This document shows positions 19,924 to 24,636 of a DNA stretch of 64,000 nt, in pieces. The notes beneath the pieces were generated by a model. The model ran no database searches. It had not been told where the DNA came from and worked only from the letters and a program-made list of their open reading frames with translations. The stretch lies in contig JBHLRQ010000003.1 in assembly GCA_048882385.1 (NCBI GenBank), forward strand, positions 1 to 64,000. Direction: 5' to 3'. The DNA comes from Candidatus Thorarchaeota archaeon (GTDB taxonomy: Archaea > Asgardarchaeota > Thorarchaeia > Thorarchaeales > Thorarchaeaceae). The stretch's first letter is position 1; each line of letters begins with the position of its first letter. The translations under genes were made by a program, and so were the position numbers.

Positions 19924-21000
19924 CTATAACTTTCGTTTTCCTAGAAGGAATTGTTCTACCCATCTCTCAGCTTTGTACATAGTTGTTGGAGTTGGGGGCA
20001 TTTTGAATCCATATGCAGAAATTGACTCAAGAGATCCAGCAAGGCCTCTCTTTAGAGCAAGTTTTGTACCACGTATAGCATCCATGAGAATTGGTCCTGC
20101 ATTAGGTCCATCAGTCACTTCCATTCTGATGTCAATCTTGATGGGTGCTCCACCAAACTGACGCCCATTGATGTAGAAATAGGAATCTCGAGCATTGTCC
20201 ATGAATTCAACCCAATCTGATGAACCTGCAACAATAGGTGCATCATATGGAAGGTCTTGTCCTACAGCCTCGCTTTTCACTCCTCTCTTTCTCAAACGAC
20301 CTCTATAATGAGAATCTATTGATTCTGCTCCTCCACCAATATCTAGCTGGTAGCTCTTGTCTACCTTCACACCTCTTGAAACTAATAATTGCAGTATATT
20401 CCTGTGAAGAACTGTGGAGCCAAGCTGATCTTGAATGTCATCTCCGACTAACGGGAGTCCTTTCTCTTCAAATTTCTTACTCCATTCGAGATCTGAGGCG
20501 ATAGGAATGGGTGTGCCATTGATGTATGCACAACCCGCTTCGAGAGCCGCATTAGCATAGTACTTTGTAGCTTCCTCTGCAGAACCAGGAATAAGGTTGA
20601 TGAGAATCTCAGCTCCGGAGTCTTTGAGAACTTTAGCAACATCGACGTCCTTTGCTTTAGATTCGGTAACAAGCGCCTTTAGCATATCATCAAGACCATC
20701 AAGTGCTGGACCCTTCATGACCTCGATACCTGTTTTGGGAACCTTTGCGAATGCCATTACATTGTTAGGTTTGGCGAATATCGCATCCGCCAGATCAGTA
20801 CCTACTTTTGTGTCAGCTACATCAAAAGCTGCAACAAACTTGATATCCTTGACATGATATCCTGCGAAGTCTGGATGTCCAAGACCTACCATCTGCTTGT
20901 CTGCTCGTGCATCTTTGTAGAATTCAACACCTTGTATAAGTGCACTAGCACAGTTTCCAACTCCAACTATTGCAACTTTTATTCCATTCAAATAAGCCAC
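19924..21000 (-). CDS. ino1: Myo-inositol-1-phosphate synthase
   Basis: GVGNCASALIQG, VAAFDV, VGDD...QLGSTVLHR, D.PN.G motif. Confidence 0.9.
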   Translation of the reverse strand: MAYLNGIKVAIVGVGNCASALIQGVEFYKDARADKQMVGLGHPDFAGYHVKDIKFVAAFDVADTKVGTDLADAIFAKPNNVMAFAKVPKTGIEVMKGPALDGLDDMLKALVTESKAKDVDVAKVLKDSGAEILINLIPGSAEEATKYYANAALEAGCAYINGTPIPIASDLEWSKKFEEKGLPLVGDDIQDQLGSTVLHRNILQLLVSRGVKVDKSYQLDIGGGAESIDSHYRGRLRKRGVKSEAVGQDLPYDAPIVAGSSDWVEFMDNARDSYFYINGRQFGGAPIKIDIRMEVTDGPNAGPILMDAIRGTKLALKRGLAGSLESISAYGFKMPPTPTTMYKAERWVEQFLLGKRKL

Positions 21001-21107
21001 CTCTGGTTCTAGCTTTGCGATTTCCTGTACATTTCTTATAAGTTATTCTATACACATAGAATAGTTAGGTCCCCGAAGAACTTATGTTGGTATGTTGCAC
21101 TTATTAT

Positions 21108-21352
21108 GGTTGGACGAAAGGCTTGCGCTCATATGCTCCCGCGTCATCGAAAGTCGTGGGAATGACGCAACCGCGTTGAAAAAGCAATACGAATGTCCAT
21201 CTGCAGGGAGATTCGGCTCCTACCCAATAGGGTTCAGGGAGATGCTGACACAGCGTGTGCATTGGAGCACCACTCATGTTTAAAAGTAAAAGAGGGTGGA
21301 CCTCGAGCCCGAAAAAGGGCACCAAGTCTTAGGCGTAAAGCCTTCGTCCACC
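21108..21352 (+). ncRNA. Unassigned highly structured non-coding RNA (~245 nt)
   Basis: Ends pair (TGGACGAAAGGCTTGCGC with GCGTAAAGCCTTCGTCCA), at least six internal helices, G-U pairs consistent with + strand, followed by T-tract; no credible ORF. Confidence 0.65.
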
Positions 21353-21524
21353 TTTTTCTAGCAAAACTATCCAGTGGATGAGTTTATAGGCAGTTCAAAC
21401 AATTCAAAGAACAGCAGTGCCCTCAAATTGAATCATAAGCTCCAGAGTTCCAGGCACAGCTTTGCGATCACTGAAGAAGATTCTACTTTTGGACGCCTGC
21501 AGAACACAGTGAACGTGAGTTATC

Positions 21525-22007
21525 ATGGGTTATCAAGAGAGAGAACCAATCGAGGCCGTAATTTCTGATCTCAAACCAAGGATGAAGAGTGTTAATATCT
21601 CATTCAAAGTTATCGAGAAAGGTGAAGTTCGAGAAGTAACATCCCGCGCAGATGGAGAGCAACATCGTGTATGCGACACTATTGTTGGAGACAGCTCTGG
21701 GAAAGTTACTGTGCCCCTATGGGATGCCTCAATTGATGAAGTTGAAGCTGATAAAACCTACAGACTAGAAAATGGATATACTACCCTCTTTCAGGGTCAT
21801 CTAAGATTGAACATCGGTCGATATGGTACACTGAAACCAGCTGAGGAAGAGATTGCTGAAATCAACGATGAAGTCGACATGTCTGAGCAAGAACATGAAC
21901 GCAGACCTCGATACGGTGGTTATCGCGGAGGCGGACGACGTGGCGGTGGATACAGAGACCGTGATCGTCGTGGTGGCGGCGGACGAGACTTCAGTCGAGG
22001 ATACTAA
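21525..22007 (+). CDS. Single-OB-fold single-stranded DNA-binding protein (SSB/RPA-like) with Arg/Gly-rich tail
   Basis: ISDLKP..VNI..KV, VGDSSG.V..LW, NGYT.LF.G.LRLNIGRYG; tail RYGGYRGGGRRGGG. Confidence 0.9.
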   Translation: MGYQEREPIEAVISDLKPRMKSVNISFKVIEKGEVREVTSRADGEQHRVCDTIVGDSSGKVTVPLWDASIDEVEADKTYRLENGYTTLFQGHLRLNIGRYGTLKPAEEEIAEINDEVDMSEQEHERRPRYGGYRGGGRRGGGYRDRDRRGGGGRDFSRGY

Positions 22008-22063: not shown

Positions 22064-23227
22064 CTATTTTGCTAAATTTTCCGCAACAATGTCTACAACA
22101 TCAACTACCCGTATATTACTCCCTTCAATCTCAACACCTGCTTTGAGGTTGCTCTCACAGAACGGACATGCTGTTGTAATGATTTCAGCTCCCGCCTCAA
22201 ATGCAGTTCTTACACGATCTACAGCCATCCTTTTCGAGAGTTCAGGATCGTATGATCGAAGACCTCCTCCAGCACCACAACACATTGCAGCCTCTCGATT
22301 GGTTTCCATTTCTACAAATTCAACATTAGGGATCGCCTTTATTATCTCCCTTGGATTGTCATAGACTCCAGCAGCTCTAGATAGATGACATGGATCGTGA
22401 TATGTTATCTTGATTTTCTTCTCTAAGGGATTTAATCCGAGCTTCTTTTCTTTGACTATTTCCTGAAGTGCTTCGGTCACATGGAGAATTTCAGGAAGGT
22501 GGATATCGAGCTTTGGGTAGTCATTACGAAGCGTCTTCAAACAACCTGCACAAGTCACAATAATCTTCTTAGCTCCAGAATTCTTAATGACTTCTGCAAG
22601 CTTCTCAGCAATCTTCCTAGCATCGTTAGTCCTTCCAGTTCGTAACATCACACTTCCACAACAGGGCTCATCCTCGAGGACTGCAAAATTGATGTCAGCC
22701 GCCTTGAGAATCTTCACCGTTGACTTGGCAATATTGGGAAGTCGAATTCCAGCTGTGCAACCAGTGTAGTAGATAACCTCTCCAGCAGAGGGAACTTCGA
22801 AACCAACTTCTTTGACCCAATCACGTTTGAGCTGTGTGTTTTCCTCGTATGGATTGTCGAACTGCATGATTCTCTGTGCAATTACATCACGAGTTTCATT
22901 AGGAATGTCACTCAGGACTGCTCTCACCTTTTCTAGACATTCTGAGGGATCAAACTCTGCAACACAGATTTCAGTACAATTTCCACACAGTGTACATGTG
23001 AACAGCGATTCTGCATTTTCCGAAGTCTTCTCAAGGGTTCCATCGAGAAGAGCTAGGGCAACCTGTATTCTCCCACGCATGAAGCTGGTTTCAAATCCTT
23101 CAGAGTTTCTCCATACAGGACAGACTCCATCAAATCCTCTGTCCTCGTAAACTGCATTCCGACAGATGCCACATCTACGACATTGCATCAAGTTCTCGAC
23201 TAGTTCTTCTAGATCAATCTCCGCCAT
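22064..23227 (-). CDS. Fe-S oxidoreductase subunit (GlpC/HdrD-like, CCG domains)
   Basis: CRRCGIC, CTLCGNC..C, CCG motifs, YHDPCHL. Confidence 0.9.
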   Translation of the reverse strand: MAEIDLEELVENLMQCRRCGICRNAVYEDRGFDGVCPVWRNSEGFETSFMRGRIQVALALLDGTLEKTSENAESLFTCTLCGNCTEICVAEFDPSECLEKVRAVLSDIPNETRDVIAQRIMQFDNPYEENTQLKRDWVKEVGFEVPSAGEVIYYTGCTAGIRLPNIAKSTVKILKAADINFAVLEDEPCCGSVMLRTGRTNDARKIAEKLAEVIKNSGAKKIIVTCAGCLKTLRNDYPKLDIHLPEILHVTEALQEIVKEKKLGLNPLEKKIKITYHDPCHLSRAAGVYDNPREIIKAIPNVEFVEMETNREAAMCCGAGGGLRSYDPELSKRMAVDRVRTAFEAGAEIITTACPFCESNLKAGVEIEGSNIRVVDVVDIVAENLAK

Positions 23228-23229
23228 TC

Positions 23230-24636
23230 TTAGATTCCTCCCAAGACTCCAGGGTTCATAATGTTGTTTGGGTCAATCATGCTTTTGATCTGTTTGAGAA
23301 ACGCCATGTAATTATCCATTCCTTCAATGGCATCTTTCCAGTAACCAGAAAGCTTGAAAGGTACAGCACCTGTCTTGAAAAGGCGCTGTGAAAGGTCTCT
23401 GTGTGCTTCTCTTATTTTCAGTTCCTCTTCTCTATCCTGGGGGTCAAAGTAGAGCTGCGGATACCAGTTGTAGGAGGCGTGTCCCGACTGAAATCCTGCA
23501 GTATGTCCTAGAATACCATACTCATCCATAACTGCCCAGAGAACCTCCATCGACTTGTGCCAATTAATCGGTGTCTGATGATGATACAAGATTCGCCAAT
23601 GCCAACCATGAACATACGACGATCGAGCAAGTTCCCGCATACGATCCTCCCACTCACTTTTTGGAAGTTCCTTGATTCCGATAACGTAGCCATCAAGTTG
23701 TCTACAGGCATCTTTTGCTGCTTCCATATCGCTCTGAAGCTGGTCTTCTCTGATACGACCAACAGCAACAGATACAGTGAATGTAGGCCATTCGTGTTGA
23801 GGGACACCATATTCCTCACCAACCATATCTAGAAAGAACTCCAGAATTCTCCCTTCATAGATAGCAACCCAAACTGCATTGATATCTTTCTGTTTCAACT
23901 CGAGCAAGAATCTTTCAGCTTTCTCAACTTCACTAAATCCGTAGGTGTTGTAGTCCATATACCTCATTCTTTTGTGTGTCTTCAAAGAAACTTTCGTGAT
24001 AATTCCGAAACTCCCAAGAGACCCTATGAATAATCCAGTGATGTCCGGACCGAAAGAATACCTTAGGAATGGTCCAGGAGCATGGGGATTAGCTTCTGAA
24101 CCGGTCTGGATAATTGTCCCGTCTGGTAAGACAACCTCAAGACCCATGACGAGTTCCGCGATGCATCCATAGACTCCGGATCCAAATCCAGCTCCGTTCA
24201 CCGCAACACATCCAGCTAATGTCGCGACCAATGAAGACCCAGGATAGAATGGAACCCACAAGTCATGCTTGTTCAGATATTTGTCCAGTTTTCCAAATGT
24301 AATTCCCGCACCAACTGTGACAGATCTCAGGTCTTTGTAGAGAGTAATCTCATCCAAACGCATTAATTCGACAACTAATCCTCCTGGCTGTGGTATGACC
24401 TCTCCTTGAAGACTCGATCCGCCTGACCTTGGTGTCACCGCTATCTTGTATTTATTCGCAATCCTGAGGACACCAGCAACTTCCTCAGTCGTGCCAGGTC
24501 TAACTACAGCGCCTGGGAGAACTGGTTCATAGCTCATTGAGGCAGAGGTTGAATAACCAAGGAGGACGTCCTTTCTCGTTGAGATGTTTTCTTTTCCAAC
24601 AATATTGGATAGTTCTTGTACTAACTCCTTATTCAC
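23230..24636 (-). CDS. FAD-binding oxidoreductase (GlcD/D-lactate dehydrogenase-like)
   Basis: PRSGGSSL, GLEVVLPDG, GSLGSFGIIT, DPNNIMNPG. Confidence 0.9.
   Translation of the reverse strand: MNKELVQELSNIVGKENISTRKDVLLGYSTSASMSYEPVLPGAVVRPGTTEEVAGVLRIANKYKIAVTPRSGGSSLQGEVIPQPGGLVVELMRLDEITLYKDLRSVTVGAGITFGKLDKYLNKHDLWVPFYPGSSLVATLAGCVAVNGAGFGSGVYGCIAELVMGLEVVLPDGTIIQTGSEANPHAPGPFLRYSFGPDITGLFIGSLGSFGIITKVSLKTHKRMRYMDYNTYGFSEVEKAERFLLELKQKDINAVWVAIYEGRILEFFLDMVGEEYGVPQHEWPTFTVSVAVGRIREDQLQSDMEAAKDACRQLDGYVIGIKELPKSEWEDRMRELARSSYVHGWHWRILYHHQTPINWHKSMEVLWAVMDEYGILGHTAGFQSGHASYNWYPQLYFDPQDREEELKIREAHRDLSQRLFKTGAVPFKLSGYWKDAIEGMDNYMAFLKQIKSMIDPNNIMNPGVLGGI

Follow-up and report, generated by a model that had tools for sequence, protein, structure and literature searches.

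What, if anything, is encoded in the stretch that separates the myo-inositol-1-phosphate synthase gene (ino1) from an Ssb-like OB-fold gene in a Candidatus Thorarchaeota archaeon? The window analysed here is a whole stretch of 64,000 nucleotides (nt; GenBank assembly GCA_048882385.1, contig JBHLRQ010000003.1, positions 1 to 64,000), and the intergenic gap of 524 bp in question, with ino1 on the minus strand on one side and the OB-fold gene on the other, holds an RNA element. A previous reading of this DNA made from its letters only (the sequence-only reading) had described an unannotated multi-helix RNA here, and had interpreted it either as a standalone, possibly undescribed Asgard non-coding RNA or as a very divergent RNase P-like RNA. 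Its observation held in part, and the first of its two interpretations is the one supported by our analysis. We predict that positions 21112-21357 of the plus strand, running from GGACG to CGTCC-ACC-TTTTT (~246 nt here, with both ends inferred), are a genuine, independently transcribed, single-copy non-coding RNA gene of ~240 nt. Comparative evidence further indicates that the RNA is specific to the Asgard class Thorarchaeia and that the family it forms is related to no described RNA. A standalone, undescribed Asgard RNA is favoured because the element has no Rfam match, carries a promoter-like box and a T-tract, is present in a single copy and has a covarying structure, and because the homologous loci are titled Thorarchaeota or Promethearchaeota. 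The current annotation of this 500-bp stretch is blank, and the RNA could enter both Rfam and Asgard genome annotation.

Covariation points to a conserved nine-helix fold

The plus strand of the element folds with a predicted energy of -99.8 kcal/mol, against -73.6 ± 4.8 kcal/mol for 200 dinucleotide shuffles (z = -5.45; 0/200 as good), while the minus strand reaches only z = -3.55. We then aligned homologues, 66 sequences from 15 genera in all, and scored each modelled pair by the percentage of alignment cells that form standard pairs, compared with the same 5' strands set against 3' partners slid by 1-3 columns, and by the presence of two-sided changes. A plain MAFFT alignment of 26 sequences (A2) gave 93.4% pairing versus 39-47% when slid, with 30/65 pairs showing two-sided changes versus 7-16. 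Similarly, the core region of all 66 sequences (65 distinct), again aligned by plain MAFFT (A5), gave 88.4% versus 38-53%, with 21/26 pairs two-sided versus 9-14. When the 66 sequences were fitted to the model (A3), pairing was 90.7% versus 36-48% and 56/65 pairs were two-sided versus 21-31, values that lean toward the model, being fitted to it. None of 500 shuffles reached the observed values in A2, A5 or A3, a count that is not a probability, as the relatives are not independent.

An all-against-all covariation scan of the 66 sequences found no pseudoknot or long-range helix beyond the nine helices P1-P9, and added one extra pair to P5. Across the modelled pairs, G.U combinations outnumber A.C combinations by 377 to 82, a bias that establishes the plus strand as that of the RNA. 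Taken together, the alignments indicate that a closed, multi-branched fold of nine helices is kept by compensatory changes.

Copy number and distribution

The genome of origin (3.70 Mb, 256 contigs, 95.3% complete) contains one full-length copy of the element, its four other matches being 15-26 bases long (E 1.6-5.6). Of the 27 further genomes of the genus, 22 gave clear homologues (E < 1e-10, 71-85% identical) in DNA searches, which also returned weaker homologues from three other genera. Two covariance models were then used, R1 (250 positions, 65 pairs) and the core model R2. R1 matches the window at 21110-21358 with 250.6 bits, and it found a full-length match in 68/86 genomes of the GTDB family, representing 15/16 genera; among family genomes with at least 90% completeness and at most 5% contamination, the figure was 22/23. 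The homologues are 223-264 nt long (median 239). Conservation in relatives, which the sequence-only reading had named as a check on its proposal, is thus found in 15 of the 16 genera of the family, together with covariation.

One copy per genome is the rule across the family, except for fragments on a second contig in genome G020. In this genome (loci L048 and L017) a 13-nt deletion takes out most of the P3 loop, and the second, fragmentary copy, on the short contig C292, probably reflects strain heterogeneity in the assembly. The many dispersed copies expected of a miniature inverted-repeat transposable element (MITE) were not seen: a MITE or other mobile repeat is rejected because the RNA is single-copy and syntenic, with one full-length copy per genome across the family and conserved synteny.

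The class consists of this GTDB family and one further genome, which is without a match. In a 151-genome sample of the phylum, R1 gave only two 17-bit matches among the 124 genomes outside the family. R2, run on 118 outside genomes, gave 20-24-bit matches in 11, a score equalled by second-best matches inside Thorarchaeia. Eight of those 11 genomes were examined; none gave an R1 match over the full length (the best was partial, at 13.2 bits), and the R2 matches were judged to be noise, the matched regions, by eye, being without the GGACG/CGUCC closing helix and lying in coding-looking or AT-rich DNA. A consensus pattern searched against one genome per species (185,579 species) returned 36 loci, 28 archaeal and eight bacterial. 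All 28 archaeal loci are full-length or near full-length R1 matches, with titles naming Candidatus Thorarchaeota, Promethearchaeota, one Hermodarchaeota and uncultured archaeon. The eight bacterial loci are not R1 matches and were rejected as homologues, as was the single locus returned by a scan of viral contigs. By these searches, the RNA is not found outside the class in the 118-124 other phylum genomes covered.

Transcription signals and genomic context

Archaeal promoters carry a TATA box centred ~26-27 nt upstream of the start and a pyrimidine-purine initiator. A TATA-like box, CTTATGT (21081-21087, plus strand), begins 31 nt upstream of the first G in GGACG and may serve as the promoter. 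The pattern CTTA[TA] occurs at -29 to -31 from this G in 57/66 homologues, its position being kept across genera, and GGACG is preceded by a pyrimidine in 65/66, as in a pyrimidine-G start. Downstream of P1, a T-rich tract (at least five T in eight positions) is present in 57/66. In the window, the closed structure (21112-21349) is followed by ACC and then TTTTT at 21353-21357, a 3' overhang and a putative archaeal oligo-T terminator (21350-21357, plus strand). These signals fit a transcript starting at 21112 and ending within 21353-21357. A scan for bacterial-type promoters and terminators gave no promoter and a single terminator-like site, which lies on the wrong strand; such a scan is uninformative for an archaeon. 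A small protein-coding open reading frame was rejected: the longest stop-free stretch is split 28/20/18 over the three registers in the 66 sequences, and one- and two-base indels separate close relatives.

The position of the element raises the question of whether it acts in cis, either as a riboswitch-like leader of the OB-fold gene or, on the opposite strand, as a long ino1 leader. In the window, ino1 (19924-21000, minus strand; Pfam Inos-1-P_synth, E 7.5e-16) is divergent from the RNA, and the OB-fold gene (21525-22007; E 4.7e-11) lies on the same strand as the RNA. We surveyed synteny at 39 loci from 15 genera. The cis reading could draw on ino1, which is divergently upstream in 37/39 loci, and on the same-strand OB-fold gene, which is downstream in only 9/39. 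Against it, a convergent CCG-domain gene follows directly in 27/39 loci, only 7-286 nt away, and the RNA is not a 5' leader because the downstream gene varies; in addition, the T-rich tract stands between the RNA and the OB-fold gene. An ino1 leader is further opposed by the strand signal of G.U over A.C pairs, by the two loci that keep the RNA without ino1, and by the TATA-like box and palindrome that ino1 has of its own, conserved between it and the RNA. We consider a cis-regulatory role very improbable.

Two features of the surroundings are recorded here in their own right. The ino1 promoter region (21035-21061) contains the palindrome TTCTAT-ACAC-ATAGAA (21046-21061) beside the TATA-like sequence CTTATAAGT (21035-21043), which reads ACTTATAAG on the ino1 strand; most of the class keeps both elements, and the palindrome is probably a transcription-factor operator for ino1. 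The convergent genes on the minus strand at 22064-24636 encode a CCG/4Fe-4S protein and an FAD-binding oxidase that adjoin the RNA in most genera, a pair that resembles the GlcF/GlcD-type subunits of glycolate or lactate dehydrogenase.

Helices and conserved elements

The element is closed by P1, in which the 5' strand GGACGAAAGGCTTGCGCT (21112-21129, plus strand) pairs with the 3' strand GGCGTAAAGCCTTCGTCC (21332-21349), interrupted by single-base bulges. The pairing of the ends over ~17 bp followed by a T-tract, as put forward by the sequence-only reading, is recovered at these positions; the extra T21111-A21350 pair that it included is possible. P1 is divided into P1a (GGACGAA, 7 bp), P1b (4-5 bp) and P1c (4-6 bp). 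The first five pairs, GGACG/CGUCC, scarcely vary (62-66 of 66), while all ten pairs of P1b and P1c covary with two-sided changes and have quite different sequences in other genera. The overhang after P1 has the form N-C-C-U, with the first C (+2) in 66/66 and ACCU in 44/66.

This terminus recalls a tRNA acceptor end, and the RNA could on that account be a mimic whose 7-bp terminal helix from G1, followed by N-C-C, is recognised by tRNA 3'-end factors such as the CCA-adding enzyme, a synthetase or an elongation factor. The 7 bp of P1a, ending at a bulge, and the conservation of the overhang agree with this proposal, as does the fact that 19/20 tRNA genes called by ARAGORN in the same genome end in an encoded NCCA and a T-rich trailer, a form that the RNase P and SRP (signal recognition particle) RNA genes do not share. 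However, ARAGORN calls no tRNA or transfer-messenger RNA (tmRNA) in the element, no T-arm adjoins the terminal helix, and the fourth base is U in 60/66 rather than A, so that the common signal amounts to just 2-3 bases. We regard such mimicry as improbable. As a separate observation, ARAGORN calls only 20 tRNA genes in this genome, one of them tRNA-SeC, a low count for which tRNA genes that are split or contain introns, or contigs that are missing, may be responsible.

Inside P1, P2 (GCTCC/GGAGC; 21135-21139 with 21264-21268, plus strand) closes the P3-P7 domain; 99.4% of its cells pair, and 4/5 pairs show a few two-sided changes. P3 is a hairpin (GCGTCAT/ATGACGC; 21140-21169, plus strand) in which 7/7 pairs of the main helix have two-sided changes, capped by a variable loop. 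The core domain P4-P7 (21172-21257, plus strand), for which the covariation comes from the MAFFT-only alignment of 66 sequences, is built from P4 (CGCGTT with AGCGTG; 21172-21177 with 21252-21257), P5 (AGCA with TGCT; 21183-21186 with 21243-21246), P6 (CGAATGTCC with GGAGATTCG; 21190-21198 with 21207-21215) and P7 (TCCTACCC with GGGTTCAGGGA; 21218-21225 with 21230-21240), all on the plus strand. P6 contains a purine-purine mismatch in 59/66 sequences (G.G in 46, A.A in 8, G.A in 4, A.G in 1) and P7 a UCA bulge in 65/66 copies. In genus g2, P7 is unrecognisable. The sequence CAYGUUCA is nearly invariant. Two further ideas were dropped by eye: a K-turn in P7, as the pairs beside the bulge are Watson-Crick, and a U6-like ACAGAGA, as CAGAGA sits in the covarying P7 stem.

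Two hairpins separate P2 from the 3' strand of P1. P8 (CCACTC/GGGTGG with an A-rich loop; 21270-21299, plus strand) shows almost no covariation, and about a quarter of the homologues lack its 5' strand or have another sequence there, with gaps in 17-22 of 66 rows. P9 (GCCC-GAAAAA-GGGC; 21307-21320, plus strand) has two-sided changes in 4/4 pairs and is dispensable, being deleted in three genomes of the genus (G024, G015 and G007).

Seven internal helices had been proposed from the letters alone. Relatives keep five of them, namely TGCTCC/GGAGCA (P2), GCGTCAT/ATGACGC (P3), ACCC/GGGT (the top of P7), CCAC/GTGG (P8) and GCCC/GGGC (P9), while the CATCT/AGATG and GGAG/CTCC helices give way to the covariation-backed pairings of P4-P7 listed above. 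The competing pairing of the sequence-only reading, TCCCGCG/CGTGGGA, could form in 93.6% of cells with one-sided changes only, and 87/500 shuffles were as good; a P3 pseudoknot, CCACG/CGUGG, would be compatible with the sequences.

The motif GAGGGTGGACCTC (21292-21304, plus strand), GAGGGUGGACCUC in its RNA form, is conserved, with GTGGA unchanged in 56/66. GAGGGUGGACCUC has three mutually exclusive pairings, with CCACUC (P8), within its own GAGG/CCUC hairpin and with the 3' tail, and none of these covaries. The local GAGG/CCUC hairpin is almost invariant, and pairing of GGGUGGAC with the 3' tail is compatible within the genus and shows no covariation there; in other genera the changes are uncompensated, which argues against an obligatory pairing.

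Another possible function is that of a trans-acting base-pairing regulator, with mRNAs or the ribosome as partners of an exposed conserved segment. The candidates for this segment are GAGGGUGGA, which is Shine-Dalgarno-like, and the 3' tail CCACCU, which is anti-Shine-Dalgarno-like; alternatively, these two would pair with each other and form a conformational switch. Both segments are conserved though unneeded for the covarying helices, 97.6% of cells within the genus would allow the two to pair, and nearby genes use GAGGTG-type ribosome-binding sites. On the other hand, the internal motif-tail pairing shows no covariation, and the tail changes in genus g3 (CCCC) and the loss of the internal motif in g5 and g6 are uncompensated. 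The genome of origin has no perfect 11-nt target for the motif, its 10-nt targets occur at chance frequency, and the longest complementarity to 16S rRNA is 14 nt, compared with 12-18 nt for shuffles, the 16S used being that of a relative as the genome of origin holds no 16S match. We regard a regulatory role of this kind as unlikely. The relative's 16S rRNA (locus L158, G062:C2, 7809-9346, minus strand) deviates near its 3' end from the usual sequence and lacks the expected ...GGAUCACCUCCU, which may be due to an insertion or intron there.

Relation to known RNA families

Rfam 15 comprises 4227 models, including RNase MRP, tmRNA, 6S, Y RNA, riboswitches and ribozymes. None of them matched the window at gathering scores, nor the region 20950-21550 at E ≤ 10, nor, at gathering scores, 20 diverse homologous loci (93,672 bases). 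ARAGORN found no tRNA or tmRNA gene in 20900-21600. The covariance-model search that the sequence-only reading had suggested thus assigns the locus to no Rfam family, and its statement that the signatures of SRP and RNase P RNA are absent from the element was borne out.

Its second interpretation did not fare as well. A very divergent paralog of RNase P, RNase MRP or SRP RNA would share with the element a similar size and a helix closing its 5' and 3' ends, and the copy in the window contains a partial GAAAGUC. However, this GAAAGTC sits in the P3 hairpin loop, which is variable outside the genus. P4 of RNase P is a long-range helix formed from the conserved CR-I and CR-V sequences, and the covariation scan of the 66 sequences contains no P4-type long-range pairing. 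Furthermore, the same genome carries both canonical RNAs elsewhere, which answers whether it has another rnpB and SRP RNA: an archaeal RNase P RNA (RNaseP_arch, RF00373) at C4:50377-50718 (164.2 bits, cut-off 84) and a full-length Archaea_SRP (RF01857) at C9:50812-51122 (L003; 95.1 bits, E 5e-22). With these genes in place and no Rfam match at E ≤ 10, a paralog of this kind is hardly credible. The SRP RNA of this genome scores just under the Rfam gathering score of 96.5, so that standard annotation would miss the gene.

Full-text literature searches returned no description of such an RNA, with supplementary files, which might list unnamed clusters, outside their scope. A preprint on the non-coding space of prokaryotes does not mention Asgard or Thorarchaeota in the passages searched, and for Asgard archaea no description of a large structured RNA beyond the universal ones was found in the literature searched, as far as its text was covered. 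To our knowledge, few large structured RNAs are archaea-specific.

A proposed ribonucleoprotein RNA

What the RNA might do is suggested by which of its parts are allowed to change. Its invariant features are irregularities embedded in helices and a terminus of fixed sequence, set amid helices that drift, and this is the usual look of protein-binding sites; for this reason we favour a trans-acting RNA that would be the subunit or scaffold of a lineage-specific ribonucleoprotein, a reading to which we assign a probability of roughly 0.4-0.5. Transcription would begin from the RNA's own TATA-like box, at the G of GGACG, and termination in the oligo-T tract would leave the 5' end paired and the 3' end overhanging as ACC(U)n. 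The RNA would then act in trans within the ribonucleoprotein, where proteins would recognise the irregular elements of invariant sequence. The candidate surfaces comprise the terminus, with the 5 bp of GGACG/CGUCC and the ACC overhang, as well as the P6 purine-purine mismatch, the P7 UCA bulge and the GUGGA motif. The role of structural spacers, free to vary, would fall to P3, P9 and the outer part of P1.

The same elements could instead form the active site of a new large ribozyme, with the invariant GUUCA (which occurs twice), GUGGA, the P6 mismatch and the P7 bulge at its centre. The RNA is large and multi-branched, its unpaired positions are strongly conserved and it matches no known class, traits that have served others to flag ribozyme candidates among orphan RNAs. 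Nevertheless, the covariation scan is without a pseudoknot or long-range tertiary pairing, P7 is missing in genus g2 and the whole RNA in genus g10, and the genomic context suggests no substrate or reaction. We hold a ribozyme to be decidedly unlikely.

Several points weigh against the picture of a ribonucleoprotein RNA gene drawn here. A catalytic core or tertiary contacts would account equally well for the irregular elements that do not vary. We infer the transcript, its ends and its abundance alike, the 20 sequencing runs that contain the locus including none on record as RNA, and within-genus kinship makes the shuffle controls overstate the significance of the fold. As for protein partners, TROVE/Ro was not found in the genome of origin (95.3% complete), and the OB-fold neighbour belongs to a multi-copy paralog family, present in 84/87 genomes of the class with 1-9 matches per genome, and in all four genomes of genus g10. 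This genus has no full-length R1 match in 4/4 genomes, and in two of its loci the gap between ino1 and the CCG gene is only 131-142 nt; from these two facts it follows that the RNA was lost or moved there, and that g10 can dispense with it. R2 gave one 19.4-bit match in g10, and the sites adjoining ino1 in g10 and in the sister family gave none. The genome of origin itself has six OB-fold paralog matches, two of them adjacent on contig C17 (G000:C17:26599-27854).

The fold, the two covariance models, the 66 sequences and the g10 loss case make the function of the RNA directly testable. Either identity, as the core of a ribonucleoprotein or as a ribozyme, would make it a cellular RNA machine of a new kind. 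A bolder proposal is that the RNA could be a third large Thorarchaeia RNA machine beside RNase P and SRP, either a ribozyme or a ribonucleoprotein with a tRNA-like G1...NCC end. This we put forward as speculation, and as unlikely; if true, the G1...NCC end of the ribonucleoprotein core would plug into tRNA- or translation-handling machinery, and the RNA would be a class-specific invention within the archaeal group closest to eukaryotes.

Comparison with known systems

The closest likeness in genomic style is to archaeal RNase P RNA (RF00373) and SRP RNA (RF01857), which function as ribonucleoproteins. Like the Thorarchaeia RNA, they are single-copy, housekeeping-style genes of 250-340 nt in which the 5' and 3' ends pair, several helices covary and some unpaired nucleotides are invariant. 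In contrast to both, the Thorarchaeia RNA matches no Rfam sequence or structure, occurs in one class, is without a match in one genus and has a different 3' end; in contrast to RNase P RNA, it has no P4 pseudoknot.

The 5'/3' terminal helix with a short, conserved, C-rich 3' overhang is shared with the tRNA-like ends of tmRNA and of the Y-RNA-like YrlA RNAs of bacteria. Unlike these, the Thorarchaeia RNA is not called by ARAGORN, has no T-arm beside its terminal helix and ends in ACCU rather than ACCA, and the genome of origin, unlike the setting of YrlA, yielded no Ro/TROVE gene.

Finally, the RNA resembles the orphan large structured non-coding RNAs of bacteria, OLE, GOLLD, HEARO, ROOL and raiA. 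These too were found through conservation and covariation alone, have large, complex folds and a narrow-to-medium phylogenetic range, and were of unknown function at discovery. The Thorarchaeia RNA does not match their Rfam models and differs from them in being archaeal, single-copy, smaller than most and associated with neither phages nor mobile elements.

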